DNA of 10,198 nucleotides from a virus (Duplodnaviria; Heunggongvirae; Uroviricota; Caudoviricetes), in IMG/VR virus record IMGVR_UViG_2531839473_000010, positions 1 to 10,198 of that record, one strand, 5' to 3'. Below the pieces are notes generated by a model. It saw nothing but the letters and a program-made list of their open reading frames with translations. It was not told the DNA's origin and searched no databases. Below, one piece after another: positions 1 to 10,198 of the stretch (positions are counted from its first letter, which is position 1; the number at the start of each line of letters is the position of its first letter). The translations under genes were made by a program, and so were the position numbers.

Positions 1-1074
1 TCATTTGTCGATTTCAATTTTGTCCCATTCCCGTCCACGGCTGTCCCTATACCGCGCCGCCATTGAATCTGATTTATGCCCGAGAAGACGTTGAGCAAAC
101 TTATCGCCAATCTGGTTCCGGTATAGCCTCGCCGACAGGCTACGCAGTTCATGGAATGTTGGCGGGTCTCCATCAAATGAGAGTCCTGATGCATTTCTCG
201 CCTTTGTAAAATACTTCGATACTGTTTTCGGGGAAAGCGGATCGTGATGCTTTGATGCGATTATTGTTTCACTGCTGCTGGCCTCCCTGCATTTCTGTAG
301 TGTATCAGCCAATGAGATATTGAGCGCGTCAATCGTTAGCGTTAGCGGAATGGCGAGTTTAGCCCCTGTTTTACTCTGTTCAATGTGAAGATGGTTGTCG
401 TTTATGTCTGACCATTTCATTCTGCACAAATCGCCGACTCTCTGCCCTGTAACGACGGCCAAATCCATCGCCAGCCTTAGCCAGATAGGGAGAGGTTCGG
501 CTGCATGGTAAATCTCGACATACTCATTAGCTGTCAGCCTTGAGCGCCTTACTTCTGACTTTGCTGTACGGGTTGCTGTTACCGGATTCGTTGCCACATG
601 CCCCTCGGCTATTGCTTCACGAAAAACGTCAACAAGGGTTGATCTGATTAATTTTGCGGAGGCCGCTTTACCTTCTGCTACGTAGGTGTTTAGCATTGTT
701 GCCACCTCTTTCGTTGATATGTCAGCGAGCGGTTTGTCCGGCAATTTTCTTCGGATTGCCCTGATTTTGCTGGCGTAGTCGAGTAGAGTTTTCGGCCTGA
801 TACCCCTCTCGCTGAGGATTGTTTCATATCGGTCAAGCCACACATGAAGAGTGATTACGTCAGCGCCTTTAATTCTGTCTATCAGTGACTCACGCCTGTT
901 CTCGGATAGCAACTCAATATTGGCCTGAATAGCCTCTGAAACTGCTATCCTTCTGTCTCTGCCTAATCCGAACTCTTTACCCGTCCTTGGGTCCCTGTAG
1001 CAGTAATATCCATTGTTTCTTATATAAAGGTTAGGGGGTAAATCCCGGCGCTCATGACTTCGCCTTCTTCCCAT
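1..1074 (-). CDS. int: Lambda-family tyrosine integrase (357 aa); the window begins at its stop codon
   Basis: Full-length ORF. N-terminus MGRRRSHERRDLPPNLYIRNNGYYCYRDPRTGKEFGLGRDRR matches recalled lambda Int nearly residue for residue. C-terminal region contains HELRSL, LLGHKS and a tyrosine in ARYRD consistent with the tyrosine-recombinase catalytic set. Start overlaps xis by 23 nt as in lambda. Confidence 0.95.
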   Translation of the reverse strand: MGRRRSHERRDLPPNLYIRNNGYYCYRDPRTGKEFGLGRDRRIAVSEAIQANIELLSENRRESLIDRIKGADVITLHVWLDRYETILSERGIRPKTLLDYASKIRAIRRKLPDKPLADISTKEVATMLNTYVAEGKAASAKLIRSTLVDVFREAIAEGHVATNPVTATRTAKSEVRRSRLTANEYVEIYHAAEPLPIWLRLAMDLAVVTGQRVGDLCRMKWSDINDNHLHIEQSKTGAKLAIPLTLTIDALNISLADTLQKCREASSSETIIASKHHDPLSPKTVSKYFTKARNASGLSFDGDPPTFHELRSLSARLYRNQIGDKFAQRLLGHKSDSMAARYRDSRGREWDKIEIDK

Positions 1075-6664: not shown

Positions 6665-7288
6665 CTATGCGGCCTCGGAAGGAAGTCCAATCATCTTATT
6701 CAAATCTTCTACCCGTAAAGCAGGAAGTGCTGTACTTGCTTTATCTGCTTCTTTTGGTAGCAATTCTTTGCTTTCAGGCCAAACCTCAATAAGTCGCTTA
6801 ACTGTTGTGACTGAGTTCAAAGCAGCCCATACATTTGATTCGATATCATTTTTCTTGGCTTCAAGTTTTTGTTGCAATGCGCAGATTTCATCAAACCTTT
6901 TTGTTATTTCGTGTTCTGCGCTAAACATGCATTTATCTTTTTTCGGAGTAGGGAGCAATATATCTTCGCCGTTGCCGTCTTTCCCATATGAATGCCATCC
7001 AACCCTTCTGCCAGATACAGTCAGATAAATTGAAGTAGAACGAACATCGTATGAGTAAAATGAACATCCCAGTTTTTCAAGTTCTTCACTTATAGCTACT
7101 AACTTGGAATATAAATGATCCACTTCCTCAGTTTTCTTTTTACCGCCAAACGCAATAACTCTGGCGTCAAGTGCAAGCTGGTTCTTTAACTTTGTTACTT
7201 CTTCAAGTTCAGTGAAAACCCCAGACTTAATTAAATCGTTACGAGCGATTTCCTCTTTCATTCTCGTAGTTAAGCGGATTGATGACAT
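6665..7288 (-). CDS. Hypothetical protein (207 aa from the ATG at 7288; the tool ORF is 227 aa), uncharacterised accessory gene
   Basis: The ATG at 7286-7288 has GAGG about 8 nt upstream. Lys/Glu-rich with predicted helical segments; no catalytic motif recognised. Occupies the ral/ea10 position of lambda, divergent from the sieB-like gene. Confidence 0.6.
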   Translation of the reverse strand: MSSIRLTTRMKEEIARNDLIKSGVFTELEEVTKLKNQLALDARVIAFGGKKKTEEVDHLYSKLVAISEELEKLGCSFYSYDVRSTSIYLTVSGRRVGWHSYGKDGNGEDILLPTPKKDKCMFSAEHEITKRFDEICALQQKLEAKKNDIESNVWAALNSVTTVKRLIEVWPESKELLPKEADKASTALPALRVEDLNKMIGLPSEAA

Positions 7289-7498: not shown

Positions 7499-8038
7499 AT
7501 GAGTAACTGGTGGCAGGAACTATTACGTTTCTTCCTGCGTGGTCTTACGCTACAACAGTTAATTCATATGCTTATTATTTTAATTGCCTTGATAATAATC
7601 ACCCCTGCATCAATTAAAGAGTGGGTAGATATAAGGAACCCAGAAATACTTCCAGATCACTGGATGTATTACGCAATGCTTTTGTGTATCAGTTATGTTC
7701 TGAACAGGGTGATGGAGTTTATATTTCTGGCATCTTCAGACAGATATAAAAAATATCTCAGTAAGAGAGATGAGGCTAAAGTAATTGTGGAGACTGAGCG
7801 CCTGTTCAATTCTCTGAGTATTCAGGAAAAAGAGGTTTTAGCATTTGCTGTTATGGCAAATAACAAAATCGTACTTAAGCACGGCGATCCGGTCGCTTTA
7901 TCTCTTATGAGAAAAGGCCTTCTCCATCGCTCAGGTGTGACTTACAGCGCGTCAGGTAAAGAGAAATTTGTTATACCTGACGTCTGGTTCCATGAGTGTT
8001 ATATGCGCTTTGCTGGTAAAGCTGATGAGCTAATTTAG
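7499..8038 (+). CDS. sieB: SieB-like superinfection-exclusion membrane protein (179 aa)
   Basis: The only plus-strand gene inside the leftward operon, convergent with and immediately adjacent to the N-like gene, as I recall for lambda sieB. Two hydrophobic helices (LIHMLIILIALIIITPASI and YYAMLLCISYVLNRVMEFIFLA). Assignment rests on synteny and topology, not on recognised sequence identity. Confidence 0.5.
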   Translation: MSNWWQELLRFFLRGLTLQQLIHMLIILIALIIITPASIKEWVDIRNPEILPDHWMYYAMLLCISYVLNRVMEFIFLASSDRYKKYLSKRDEAKVIVETERLFNSLSIQEKEVLAFAVMANNKIVLKHGDPVALSLMRKGLLHRSGVTYSASGKEKFVIPDVWFHECYMRFAGKADELI

Positions 8039-8059
8039 TTCCTCGACGGCGGGGGATCG

Positions 8060-8332
8060 TCACCTCGCTGTCAGTTGTTTTGATTTCCGGTAGCCTGCCG
8101 CGTAAAGAGCTACGTTCGGAAGACAAGTTGAGCCTTCATATTTTCTGGTCAACGTTGTCAGTGTTATTACTTCTGCTCTCATTGCTGGTTTGCGCTTGCA
8201 TTGCAAGACCACTCGTGAAGGGGTTGGCCTGTGTAGCTTGTCGGAGCTGATCGCCTCCTGACTTTGCAGATTTGCACGACGAGCTCTACGGCGAGAAGCT
8301 GCGGTGCCTTTAAATTCTGTTTTTCTGGACAT
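8060..8332 (-). CDS. N: N-like transcription antiterminator (90 aa from the ATG at 8332; the tool ORF is 114 aa)
   Basis: N-terminal arginine-rich motif GTAASRRRARRANLQ. C-terminus ...LPNVALYAAGYRKSKQLTAR resembles the P22/phi21-type N proteins as recalled. GGAGG ribosome-binding site at 5-nt spacing. First gene downstream of the predicted PL and nutL. Confidence 0.7.
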   Translation of the reverse strand: MSRKTEFKGTAASRRRARRANLQSQEAISSDKLHRPTPSRVVLQCKRKPAMRAEVITLTTLTRKYEGSTCLPNVALYAAGYRKSKQLTAR

Positions 8333-8430: not shown

Positions 8431-8478
8431 TGGCTTTTCAGCCACGTAGTCGAGTGTTCGACGTTGTTTAAAGAGCAT
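8431..8478 (-). promoter_or_regulatory. Candidate nutL site: boxA, spacer hairpin, boxB
   Basis: Minus strand reads TGCTCTTTAAACAAC (boxA-like; compare rrn boxA TGCTCTTTAACAA), then hairpin GTCGA-ACAC-TCGAC, TACG, then TGGCT-GAAA-AGCCA (boxB-like stem-loop with a GAAA loop). Same architecture as the candidate nutR. Confidence 0.6.
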
Positions 8479-8522
8479 GCCAGTCTGTTCCGTTTGGCTT
8501 CCAGCTTCCTGCTGATGGCTAA

Positions 8523-8598
8523 ATAGTACGATGTGTACTTTACTGAGTCAATACAAAATGTTCTAAATATGGTTTAGTTTTTTATAACGCTTTGTATT
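8523..8598 (-). promoter_or_regulatory. Candidate PL promoter with three OL operator sites
   Basis: Minus strand -35 TTGACT (plus 8546-8551), 17-bp spacer, -10 TACTAT (plus 8523-8528). Fifteen-bp sites on the plus strand: AGTACGATGTGTACT (8525-8539, perfect 5-N5-5 palindrome), AATACAAAATGTTCT (8550-8564) and ATAACGCTTTGTATT (8584-8598). All share AC-N5-GT spacing with the OR sites. Confidence 0.45.
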
Positions 8599-8677: not shown

Positions 8678-9337
8678 TTAACTAAATGTCTCTTCAGGCC
8701 ACTGGCTGGCGATAACTTTCCCTACTACGGAACAGCTATCATTGCATGGAATCATTGGATATTGCGGGTTTAGTGGTTGTAGGAACACCTGACCGCTATC
8801 CCTGATCAGTTTCTTGAAGGTAAACTCGTCACCACCAAGTCTGGCTATGCAGAAATCACCTGGCTCAACAGCCTGCTCAGGGTCAACGAGAATTAACATC
8901 CCGTCAGGAAAGCTTGGCTTGGATCCTGTTGGCGCGGTCATGGAATTACCTTCAACTTCAAGCCAAAACGCACAATCACTGGCTTTTTTGGTTGTGCTGA
9001 CCCATCTCTCCGCATCACCTTTGGTAAAGGTTCTAAGCTCAGGCGAGAACATCCCAGCCTGAACATGAGAAAAAACAGGGTACTCATATTGTTTTTTAAC
9101 GGGGGCAGATGAGTATTCGCCAACAGGTGAAAATGTACCGTCGTGGTTGAATGAGACGTTATCAATACCAAGGTATTTAAACACCACACCAATCTCGTCA
9201 AGAGATGGATGACGATATCCGCGCAACCAGTGACCAATTCCACCCTGCGTCATACCAAGCTCTTCAGCTAACTTCTCTTGAGTTATGCCGAGCTCTTTCA
9301 TTCTGGATCTAGCCAGTTCATACCATTTCATTTTCAT
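8678..9337 (-). CDS. cI: cI-type prophage repressor (about 219 aa from the ATG at 9337): HTH_XRE N-terminal domain plus LexA/S24-like autocleavage C-terminal domain
   Basis: The C-terminal segment from [38 protein letters not shown] through [88 protein letters not shown] matches recalled lambda cI almost exactly, including the Ser/Lys dyad. The N-terminal DNA-binding domain ([44 protein letters not shown]...) is not lambda's. The tool start at 9499 would extend into the operator region; the ATGs at 9337 and 9331 are more plausible. Confidence 0.85.
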
Positions 9338-9346
9338 ACCCTTATT

Positions 9347-9421
9347 ATTACGCTCTGTACTAAAATCATCCATGCACAAGATGTATTTTTGTTTGCATTC
9401 TAAAAGTACATATCGTATTAT
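9347..9421. promoter_or_regulatory. Candidate OR operator cluster with PR promoter (PRM not resolved)
   Basis: Sites ATTACGCTCTGTACT (9347-9361), TGCACAAGATGTATT (9373-9387, weaker) and AGTACATATCGTATT (9405-9419). Plus-strand PR: -35 TTGCAT (9393-9398), 17-bp spacer, -10 TATTAT (9416-9421), about 20-nt leader to the cro-like ATG. The last site overlaps the -10, as expected for an OR1-type site. Confidence 0.45.
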
Positions 9422-9447: not shown

Positions 9448-9663
9448 ATGAGCAACCTACGAAAATATCGAGAGTCACTGAATATCTCTCAAACAACACT
9501 TGCTAAGGCAGTTGGATGCACACAGGGAGCTATCGGACATTGGGAATCTGGTCGTCGCTTCCCAGACCTTAAAACATGCCGTGCTCTTGTTGAGTGCCTA
9601 AACAAGTTAGGCGCAAAAGTCAGTCTTGATGACGTGTTCCCGCCGGAACACAAAGCTGCTTAA
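9448..9663 (+). CDS. cro: Cro-like HTH_XRE regulator (71 aa from the ATG at 9448)
   Basis: Divergent from the repressor across the operator region. GGAGG ribosome-binding site 4 nt upstream. Its helix-turn-helix ([22 protein letters not shown]) closely parallels the repressor's ([22 protein letters not shown]), consistent with shared operators. Confidence 0.7.
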
Positions 9664-9673
9664 TAAGCGGATC

Positions 9674-9719
9674 CGCTCTTTGTAACAACGGACATTCGTC
9701 CTACGTCGCTGAAAAGCGA
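9674..9719 (+). promoter_or_regulatory. Candidate nutR site: boxA, spacer hairpin, boxB
   Basis: CGCTCTTTGTAACAAC (boxA-like), hairpin GGAC-ATTC-GTCC, TACG, then TCGCT-GAAA-AGCGA (boxB-like). Begins 11 nt after the cro stop. A perfect palindrome AGCGGATCCGCT (9666-9677) overlaps the 5' edge of boxA. Confidence 0.6.
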
Positions 9720-9763
9720 GTCCCAATATATCTGACCAACTAAGGCCATATGCGTTTCCACGC

Positions 9764-10198
9764 TGAACCGCCCCGGGTTTCCTGGAGAGTGTTTTATCTG
9801 TGAACTCAGGCTGCCAGATCATTGTTTCCGATGGAAGCATAATAAGCTTTTTCTGCTTCTGCCGGAGGAGTATGGCCCAGCCTTCCCAGCAATCGTCGAT
9901 TGTTATACCAGTCCACCCACGTGAGTGTGGCCAGTTCCACTTCTGCACGGTTTTTCCAGCTCTTACGGTGTATTACCTCCGCTTTGTAAAGACCATTGAT
10001 GCTCTCAGCCATCGCGTTGTCATACGAGTCGCCTGTACTCCCTGTTGATGCCAGCAGTTTTGCTTCTTTTAGTCGCTCCGTATAGGCCAGTGACACATAC
10101 TGAGAGCCTTTATCGCTGTGATGGATGGTGCCAGACGGACGACGGGCCCAGAACGCCTGCTCCAGCGCATCCAGCACGAATGTCGTTTCCATAGACGA
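9764..10198 (-). mobile_element. IS3-family insertion sequence, partial (one end only; continues past the window edge)
   Basis: Terminus TGAACCGCCCCGGGTTTCCTGGAGA starts at 9764 with the TG typical of IS3-family ends, and resembles the recalled IS629/IS3411-type inverted repeat. It contains the 3' part of a transposase gene on the minus strand. Confidence 0.75.
9806..10198 (-). CDS. IS3-family transposase OrfB (integrase-core/DDE domain), C-terminal part; 5' end lies outside the window
   Basis: IHHSDKGSQYVS..., DSYDNAMAESINGLYKAEVIH... and WVDWYNNRRLLGRLGHTPPAEAE are the hallmark of the IS3-family OrfB catalytic core C-terminus. The reading frame runs to the window edge. Confidence 0.85.
   Translation of the reverse strand, partial: SSMETTFVLDALEQAFWARRPSGTIHHSDKGSQYVSLAYTERLKEAKLLASTGSTGDSYDNAMAESINGLYKAEVIHRKSWKNRAEVELATLTWVDWYNNRRLLGRLGHTPPAEAEKAYYASIGNNDLAA

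Follow-up and report, generated by a model that had tools for sequence, protein, structure and literature searches.

An IS3-family insertion sequence between nutR and cII of a lambda-like prophage

The immunity region and the edge of the insertion sequence

The stretch of DNA analysed here, 10,198 nucleotides in length and hereafter called the window, is base for base the reverse complement of part of scaffold GL872042.1 (GCA_000190955.1; L004) and carries the immunity genes of a lambda-like prophage together with one end of an insertion sequence (IS). Towards its right end lie a gene for a cI-type repressor of 231 amino acids (8678-9373, minus strand; PF01381, HTH, and PF00717, S24 peptidase), whose product is annotated in relatives as a LexA family protein, and a gene for a cro-type HTH repressor of 71 amino acids (9448-9663, plus strand; Pfam HTH_3, E=1.4e-12), which is likewise annotated in relatives. 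Just upstream of cro is a pR-like promoter that is a match in a consensus scan only (TTTGCA, 18-nt spacer, TATTAT; 9392-9421, plus strand). This promoter and a pL-like promoter (8521-8551) overlap a common palindromic motif, AGTACA(C/T)ATCGTA(C/T)T, copies of which probably serve as operators in this immunity type.

Further left, between N and the recombination genes, the window holds a gene for a putative nucleotide-modification protein of the Nmad5 family (6665-7288, minus strand; Pfam) and a SieB-type superinfection-exclusion gene (7499-8038, plus strand; Pfam). Positions 1-1074 (minus strand) are occupied by an HK022/mEp235-type integrase gene (357 amino acids), at whose end the window starts, and the next gene in the scaffold (L004 19468 onwards) encodes a TorS-like sensor kinase; taken together, these two genes place the end of the prophage and its attachment site just left of the window.

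Downstream of cro, nutR (9674-9719, plus strand) aligns with the annotated nutR of lambda and consists of boxA, CGCTCTTTG, at 9674-9682 and boxB, TCGCT-GAAA-AGCGA, at 9706-9719. Its partner nutL (8431-8476, minus strand), with boxA, GCTCTTTAA, at 8476-8468 and boxB, TGGCT-GAAA-AGCCA, at 8444-8431, is located between the pL-like promoter and the N gene (8060-8332, minus strand; 90 amino acids; PF25694, E=3e-32). The boxB stems of the two sites differ by one compensatory pair (C-G to G-C), and the boxB loop is the 4-nt GAAA here, whereas that of lambda is GAAAA. In HK97 and Stx2 phage I the boxB stem is the one found here, and the loop is the 5-nt GACAA. Given its boxA, its boxB, its position downstream of cro and the presence of both nutL and N, nutR has the makeup of a lambda-type nut site and is predicted to be active in antitermination.

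To the right of nutR, the window reads AAGG at 9742-9745 and ATG at 9750-9752, then CGT TTC CAC GC, and from 9764 onwards TGAACCGCCCCGGG. The initial annotation had read these positions in the same way and had placed the terminus of an IS3-family element at 9764 (TGAACCGCCCCGG...), inside a lambda-like prophage; that observation is confirmed. IS-free relatives are 99-100% identical to the window through 9763 and divergent beyond it, positions 9764-10198 match positions 1-436 of a complete 1310-bp IS3-family copy (L008) at 435/436, and the same stretch encodes an rve transposase. Since relatives diverge exactly there, a complete copy is matched from that point and transposase coding follows, we conclude that 9763/9764 is the true IS boundary. 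The element had been said to lie 45 bp downstream of nutR; it does indeed start just downstream of nutR, at a measured distance of 44 bp past boxB.

The IS portion of the window (9764-10198, minus strand) comprises 435 bases of the 436 nearest the orfB end, and its transposase genes run antisense to pR. It contains the C-terminus of OrfB (9806-10198, minus strand; 130 codons plus the stop), in which the Pfam domains rve, rve_2 and rve_3 (integrase core, DDE) are recognized. Elements of the IS3 family with 99.8% identity to this portion occur in numerous E. coli genomes (about 40 complete-genome records), and a further copy, which carries the annotation "IS3-like element IS1203 family", agrees with it at 428/436 positions (98.2%). 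An independent assembly of run SRR032846 from Logan (L007) has the left junction as well, its contig stopping after 30 nt of the repeat. Among complete E. coli genomes none has an identical junction, the nearest IS positions being 4 bp to several hundred bp off, and the exact junction is absent from a genome contig collection that holds one genome per species. Within the phage collection, no record covers at least 80% of the window (the top record covers 48%), and an Rfam scan of the entire window returned no family at gathering score.

cII, the right arm and the hairpin at the insertion point

The last base of the window lies 1 base short of an N-gap within the IS in scaffold GL872042.1, and past the gap and the remainder of the element the scaffold carries a complete cII gene of 98 amino acids. 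The encoded protein covers positions 1-90 of the 91 in the Pfam Phage_CII profile and is 35% identical to lambda CII, the two being aligned to their C-terminal ...MQF / ...MEF. The start codon of cII is located 44 nt past the far IS end. Beyond cII follow a 53-amino-acid ORF, O, a DnaB-type helicase gene, the nin genes, Q and a holin gene, with sizes equal to those in the IS-free relative L003. Over 7610 bp this right arm is collinear with L003 with 16 mismatches, the first 6825 bp being identical (genes were seen up to the holin gene). Because the right arm (cII, O, helicase, nin, Q, holin) shows no decay, the insertion looks recent. We also considered whether the prophage genome ends at the IS, and this was ruled out, as phage genes continue past the element.

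The spacer between boxB and cII was aligned among this phage, HK97, Stx phages, Salmonella phage Si3 and lambda, and a hairpin within it proved to be conserved. In IS-free coordinates the full hairpin, TATGCG-TTTCCA-CGCATA, occupies 9749-9766, and it is predicted by ViennaRNA in the IS-free RNA. What is left of it in the window, 9749-9763 (plus strand; TATGCG-TTTCCA-CGC, cut before the final ATA), is recognized from the alignments with lambda, HK97, Stx phages and Si3 and includes the ATG at 9750-9752, which sits in the 5' arm. Across the alignment 98% of the cells in the stem are paired, and two of the seven pairs covary, with changes on both sides. The lambda counterpart, TATGCA-TTTATT-TGCATA at 38306-38323, has an A-U pair where a G-C pair is found here, and the Si3 hairpin has an extra C-G pair. 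In this phage as in lambda, the hairpin lies between nutR/rutB and the ribosome-binding region of cII and is followed by a CAATCAA/CAACTAA-like stretch. The lambda record annotates only rutA, nutR and rutB in that region, and we take the lambda hairpin at 38306-38323 to be part of tR1. From its sequence and position, the hairpin in this phage appears to be of the terminator type and the counterpart of the lambda tR1-region hairpin, and Rho-dependent termination would be expected there. The published order of elements in lambda is cro-nutR-tR1-cII (PMC5869508).

The conserved hairpin bears directly on the ATG at 9750, from which the initial annotation had a cII-like first gene start that was cut to four codons by the IS. 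This reading is barely credible: an AAGG does stand 4 nt upstream of the ATG, roughly where cII is expected, and the ATG does open an ORF of 32 codons here and in close relatives, but that ORF shrinks to 16 codons in HK97, 12 in lambda and 5 in Si3 while the hairpin that holds the ATG is kept with compensatory changes, no gene is annotated between cro and cII in any record (nor at this ATG in RefSeq genomes, HK97, Stx1 and Stx2 phages or Si3), and the true cII, whose start in IS-free phages is 41 nt further right, is intact past the IS and is in a different frame. A search past the IS for the remainder of an interrupted gene found none, and came upon the intact cII instead.

The two ends of the element and its target site

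The gap in the scaffold (L004 8133-9174) begins directly right of window position 10198 and is written as 1042 N, where about 394 bp would complete a 1310-bp IS; the length of 1042 is probably an estimate. The initial annotation had proposed extending the sequence across the IS, and past the gap we found both the second inverted repeat and a 3-bp target-site duplication, CGC. Here the far part of the IS provides 478 bases that align to positions 831-1310 of the 1310-bp copy (474/478) and are 96.7% identical to the annotated IS1203. The terminal inverted repeats, TGAACCGCCCCGGGTTTCCTGGAGA at the orfB-proximal (right) end (9764-9788) and TGAACCGCCCCGGAAATCCTGGAGA at the far end, are 25 nt long and 88% complementary, and the element has the 5'-TG...CA-3' ends of the IS3 type. 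The far part also contains orfA, in which an HTH_Tnp_1 domain was identified.

The left copy of the duplicated CGC is at 9761-9763, a second CGC abuts the far IS end in L004, and a single CGC is present in the IS-free L003, so that the two junctions read ...TTTCCACGC/TGAACC...GGTTCA/CGCATACC... (slashes mark the IS ends). When the IS and one CGC are deleted, the sequence is identical at 170/170 positions to that of L003, an uninterrupted relative with the same cI. This IS-free sister prophage is carried by strains GCA_036679865.1 and ERR11778261. The duplication thus has a length within the 3-4 bp range of the IS3 family, and target-site duplications of 3-4 bp have been described for IS629 (PMC3271280). 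With respect to the hairpin, the IS is situated within the 3' arm, and the duplicated CGC corresponds to the first three bases of that arm.

That the scaffold contains a single 1310-bp copy is deduced from its two ends, the central stretch of about 394 bp being behind the scaffold gap. The two ends could instead belong to two copies, with other DNA between them in a composite or misjoined scaffold. A gap of 1042 N where 394 bp would suffice would fit such a structure, as would two irregularities close to the edge of the gap, an N and a 1-nt deletion, but the 3-bp direct repeats match, the flanks are perfectly contiguous when compared with the IS-free relative, the orientations and coordinates of both ends are those expected of one copy, and scaffold gap sizes are estimates. 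We consider two copies or a misjoin very improbable.

The 1-nt deletion concerns orfA. In L004 this gene (about 8040-8135, beside the N-gap) is 113 amino acids long and has the deletion at its stop, with an N nearby; the stop lacks one A, reading AAAAAATATG in L004 and AAAAAATAATG in a complete copy. The orfA product of IS629 has 108 amino acids, and a programmed -1 frameshift between orfA and orfB is annotated in near-identical copies elsewhere; in this copy the start of orfB falls within the gap. The deletion may reflect mis-sequencing where a contig ends, or it may be a change that places orfB beyond the -1 frameshift and inactivates the transposase.

Bringing these observations together, we think it very probable that one 1310-bp element of the IS629/IS1203 type (IS3 family) inserted into the non-coding spacer between cro and cII. 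The recipient was an immunity module of the HK97/Stx-phage type, and the point of entry the 3' arm of the hairpin that matches the lambda tR1-region hairpin, 44 bp past the boxB of nutR and 41 bp ahead of the start codon of cII. Insertion produced the 3-bp CGC duplication and left the transposase genes pointing leftward, antisense to pR, with no reading frame broken. The interpretation given in the initial annotation is thus partly supported: the presence and family of the IS, where it sits relative to nutR and how it cuts pR off from the genes beyond were all read correctly, and the reading of a truncated gene was wrong.

Predicted effects, recurrence and comparison with known systems

The initial annotation had reasoned that the IS comes between the replication and late genes on one side and pR, cro and nutR on the other, and the scaffold bears this out, with cII, O, the helicase gene and Q all located on the far side. 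To reach cII-O-P-Q, transcription from pR would have to extend over about 1.3 kb of IS that is read antisense and left untranslated, and Rho-dependent polarity would be expected when N is absent or limiting. Since polymerase would meet nutR before the IS, its N-modified form should get through much of the element. N-modified polymerase overrides terminators as well as the polarity of insertions, and Adhya, Gottesman and de Crombrugghe reportedly found in 1974 that N relieves the polarity of insertions. Scans of the IS revealed no outward promoter towards cII, and weak terminator-like matches only, which were not clearly above those in shuffled sequences.

In lambda, the leftward promoter pE is partly embedded in cII's first eight codons (PMC5869508). 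For this phage, a pRE can be predicted by homology to the right of the IS, with the -10 sequence TAAGAT as the complement of IS-free positions 9795-9800 and a CII site, TTGCTGTAACTTGT (TTGC-N6-TTGT; complement of 9814-9827), in the first cII codons, also right of the IS. With pRE in this location, the establishment transcript for cI would need to run through the whole IS, in the direction that is sense for the transposase. The frequency of lysogenization by progeny phage should fall as a result of the insertion, and transposase expression could rise from pRE read-through. Maintenance of an existing lysogen from pRM should be unaffected.

For the lytic programme, we see about an even chance that it is weakened or delayed rather than abolished, an outcome that we rate as roughly comparable to a cryptic state. 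One alternative holds that the IS is fully polar on cII-O-P-Q, so that the prophage is cryptic and undergoes neither replication nor killing on induction, and that selection favoured the insertion for its taming effect. Such selection would be consistent with the distribution of related insertions: IS629-type elements are present within about 1 kb downstream of cro in 37/589 module-bearing E. coli genomes, at many positions and in both orientations, and several of them are accompanied by cII-O-P deletions. It would also be in line with laboratory results, as IS insertions in the pR operon, among them an IS2 insertion in lambda P, have been found among survivors of prophage induction (PMC4926192). 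Against it, the position of nutR ahead of the IS should let N-modified polymerase override polarity, and the right arm is without decay, as would be expected of a very recent event or of continued function. We regard a cryptic prophage tamed by a selected insertion as possible but somewhat doubtful.

The survey behind these counts covered 5426 complete E. coli genomes, 589 of which have the cro-nutR module. Where an IS629-type element follows the module on its right, no further than about 1 kb away, it has the same orientation as the one described here in 13 genomes and the opposite orientation in 24, and an orientation bias of the IS near cro was accordingly rejected. Insertion points were sampled from eight further sequences (L001 and L009-L015) in addition to the window, and in IS-free coordinates they span about 9734-10199. 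Three are in the spacer between nutR and cII: one after about 9734, accompanied by a deletion, the one at 9763 in this window, with no accompanying change, and one at 9767, with loss of cII-O-P. Those within cII are at 9883, at about 9890 (two cases, both with deletions), at 9929 and at about 10067, and a further insertion is at 10199, between cII and O; no accompanying change was noted for 9883, 9929, 10067 or 10199. Three of these IS629-type events thus fall within 34 bp around the hairpin.

The sampled insertions are independent events and would reflect either a regional hot spot or repeated selection. We estimate that there have been about a dozen or more independent insertions in this stretch, and the excess over random placement is at least tenfold by a rough estimate that is not corrected for phylogeny. 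It may be that nutR-tR1-cII-O is a true recurrent target of the IS629 family, through selection for taming or through targeting of the hairpin, and that in the present copy the transposase is in addition coupled to pRE; we consider this combined proposal unlikely. If it were true, pRE-driven transposase would tie transposition of the IS to the lysis-lysogeny decision of the phage. That IS629-type insertions have recurred in this 0.5-1 kb stretch in different E. coli lineages points to a possible route of prophage domestication, and the pattern may merit a population survey.

The event itself, an ordinary insertion of a known IS into a known kind of prophage region, has little import beyond correct annotation, according to which the ATG belongs to a terminator-type hairpin rather than to a gene start and cII is intact. 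The element resembles IS629, IS1203 and IS3411 of E. coli and Shigella in its ends (TGAACCGCCCCGG...CCGGGGCGGTTCA), its 25-nt inverted repeats, the 1310-bp length of near-identical complete copies, an orfA with an HTH and an orfB with rve, its 3-bp duplication and its location in a prophage. This copy is a sequence subtype of that group, about 97-98% identical to the annotated IS1203, and differs from the group in nothing essential. Prophages are common sites for such elements: 62% of the IS629 copies in O157 genomes are within prophages or prophage-like elements (PMC3271280), and O157:H7 Stx prophages that are otherwise identical differ chiefly in the copy number and position of IS629 (PMC4587872). 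We also observed O157 strains in which an IS1203 is inside cII of this same module. Compared with IS629 in the Stx and lambdoid prophages of O157:H7, the present insertion is intergenic, in the hairpin equivalent to tR1, and cII is intact.

The recipient region is like the cro-nutR-tR1-cII region of lambda in having the same order of elements, both boxA and boxB, and a TTGC-N6-TTG(C/T) CII site in the first codons of cII; in this prophage, unlike in lambda, the hairpin is split by an IS. Lambda also offers classical polar IS insertions in its y/cII region, namely r32, which is an IS2, and r14, which is an IS1. As in those mutants, an IS here lies between cro and O/P and cuts off pR, and polarity would be expected on cII, O and P. 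In this sense the prophage parallels, in nature, the classical polar IS mutants of lambda, and it could serve to examine the distance that N antitermination reaches through the IS and the effect of uncoupling pRE from cI. It differs from r32 and r14 in that the IS belongs to another family, and in being a natural prophage, known from its sequence, rather than a laboratory mutant.
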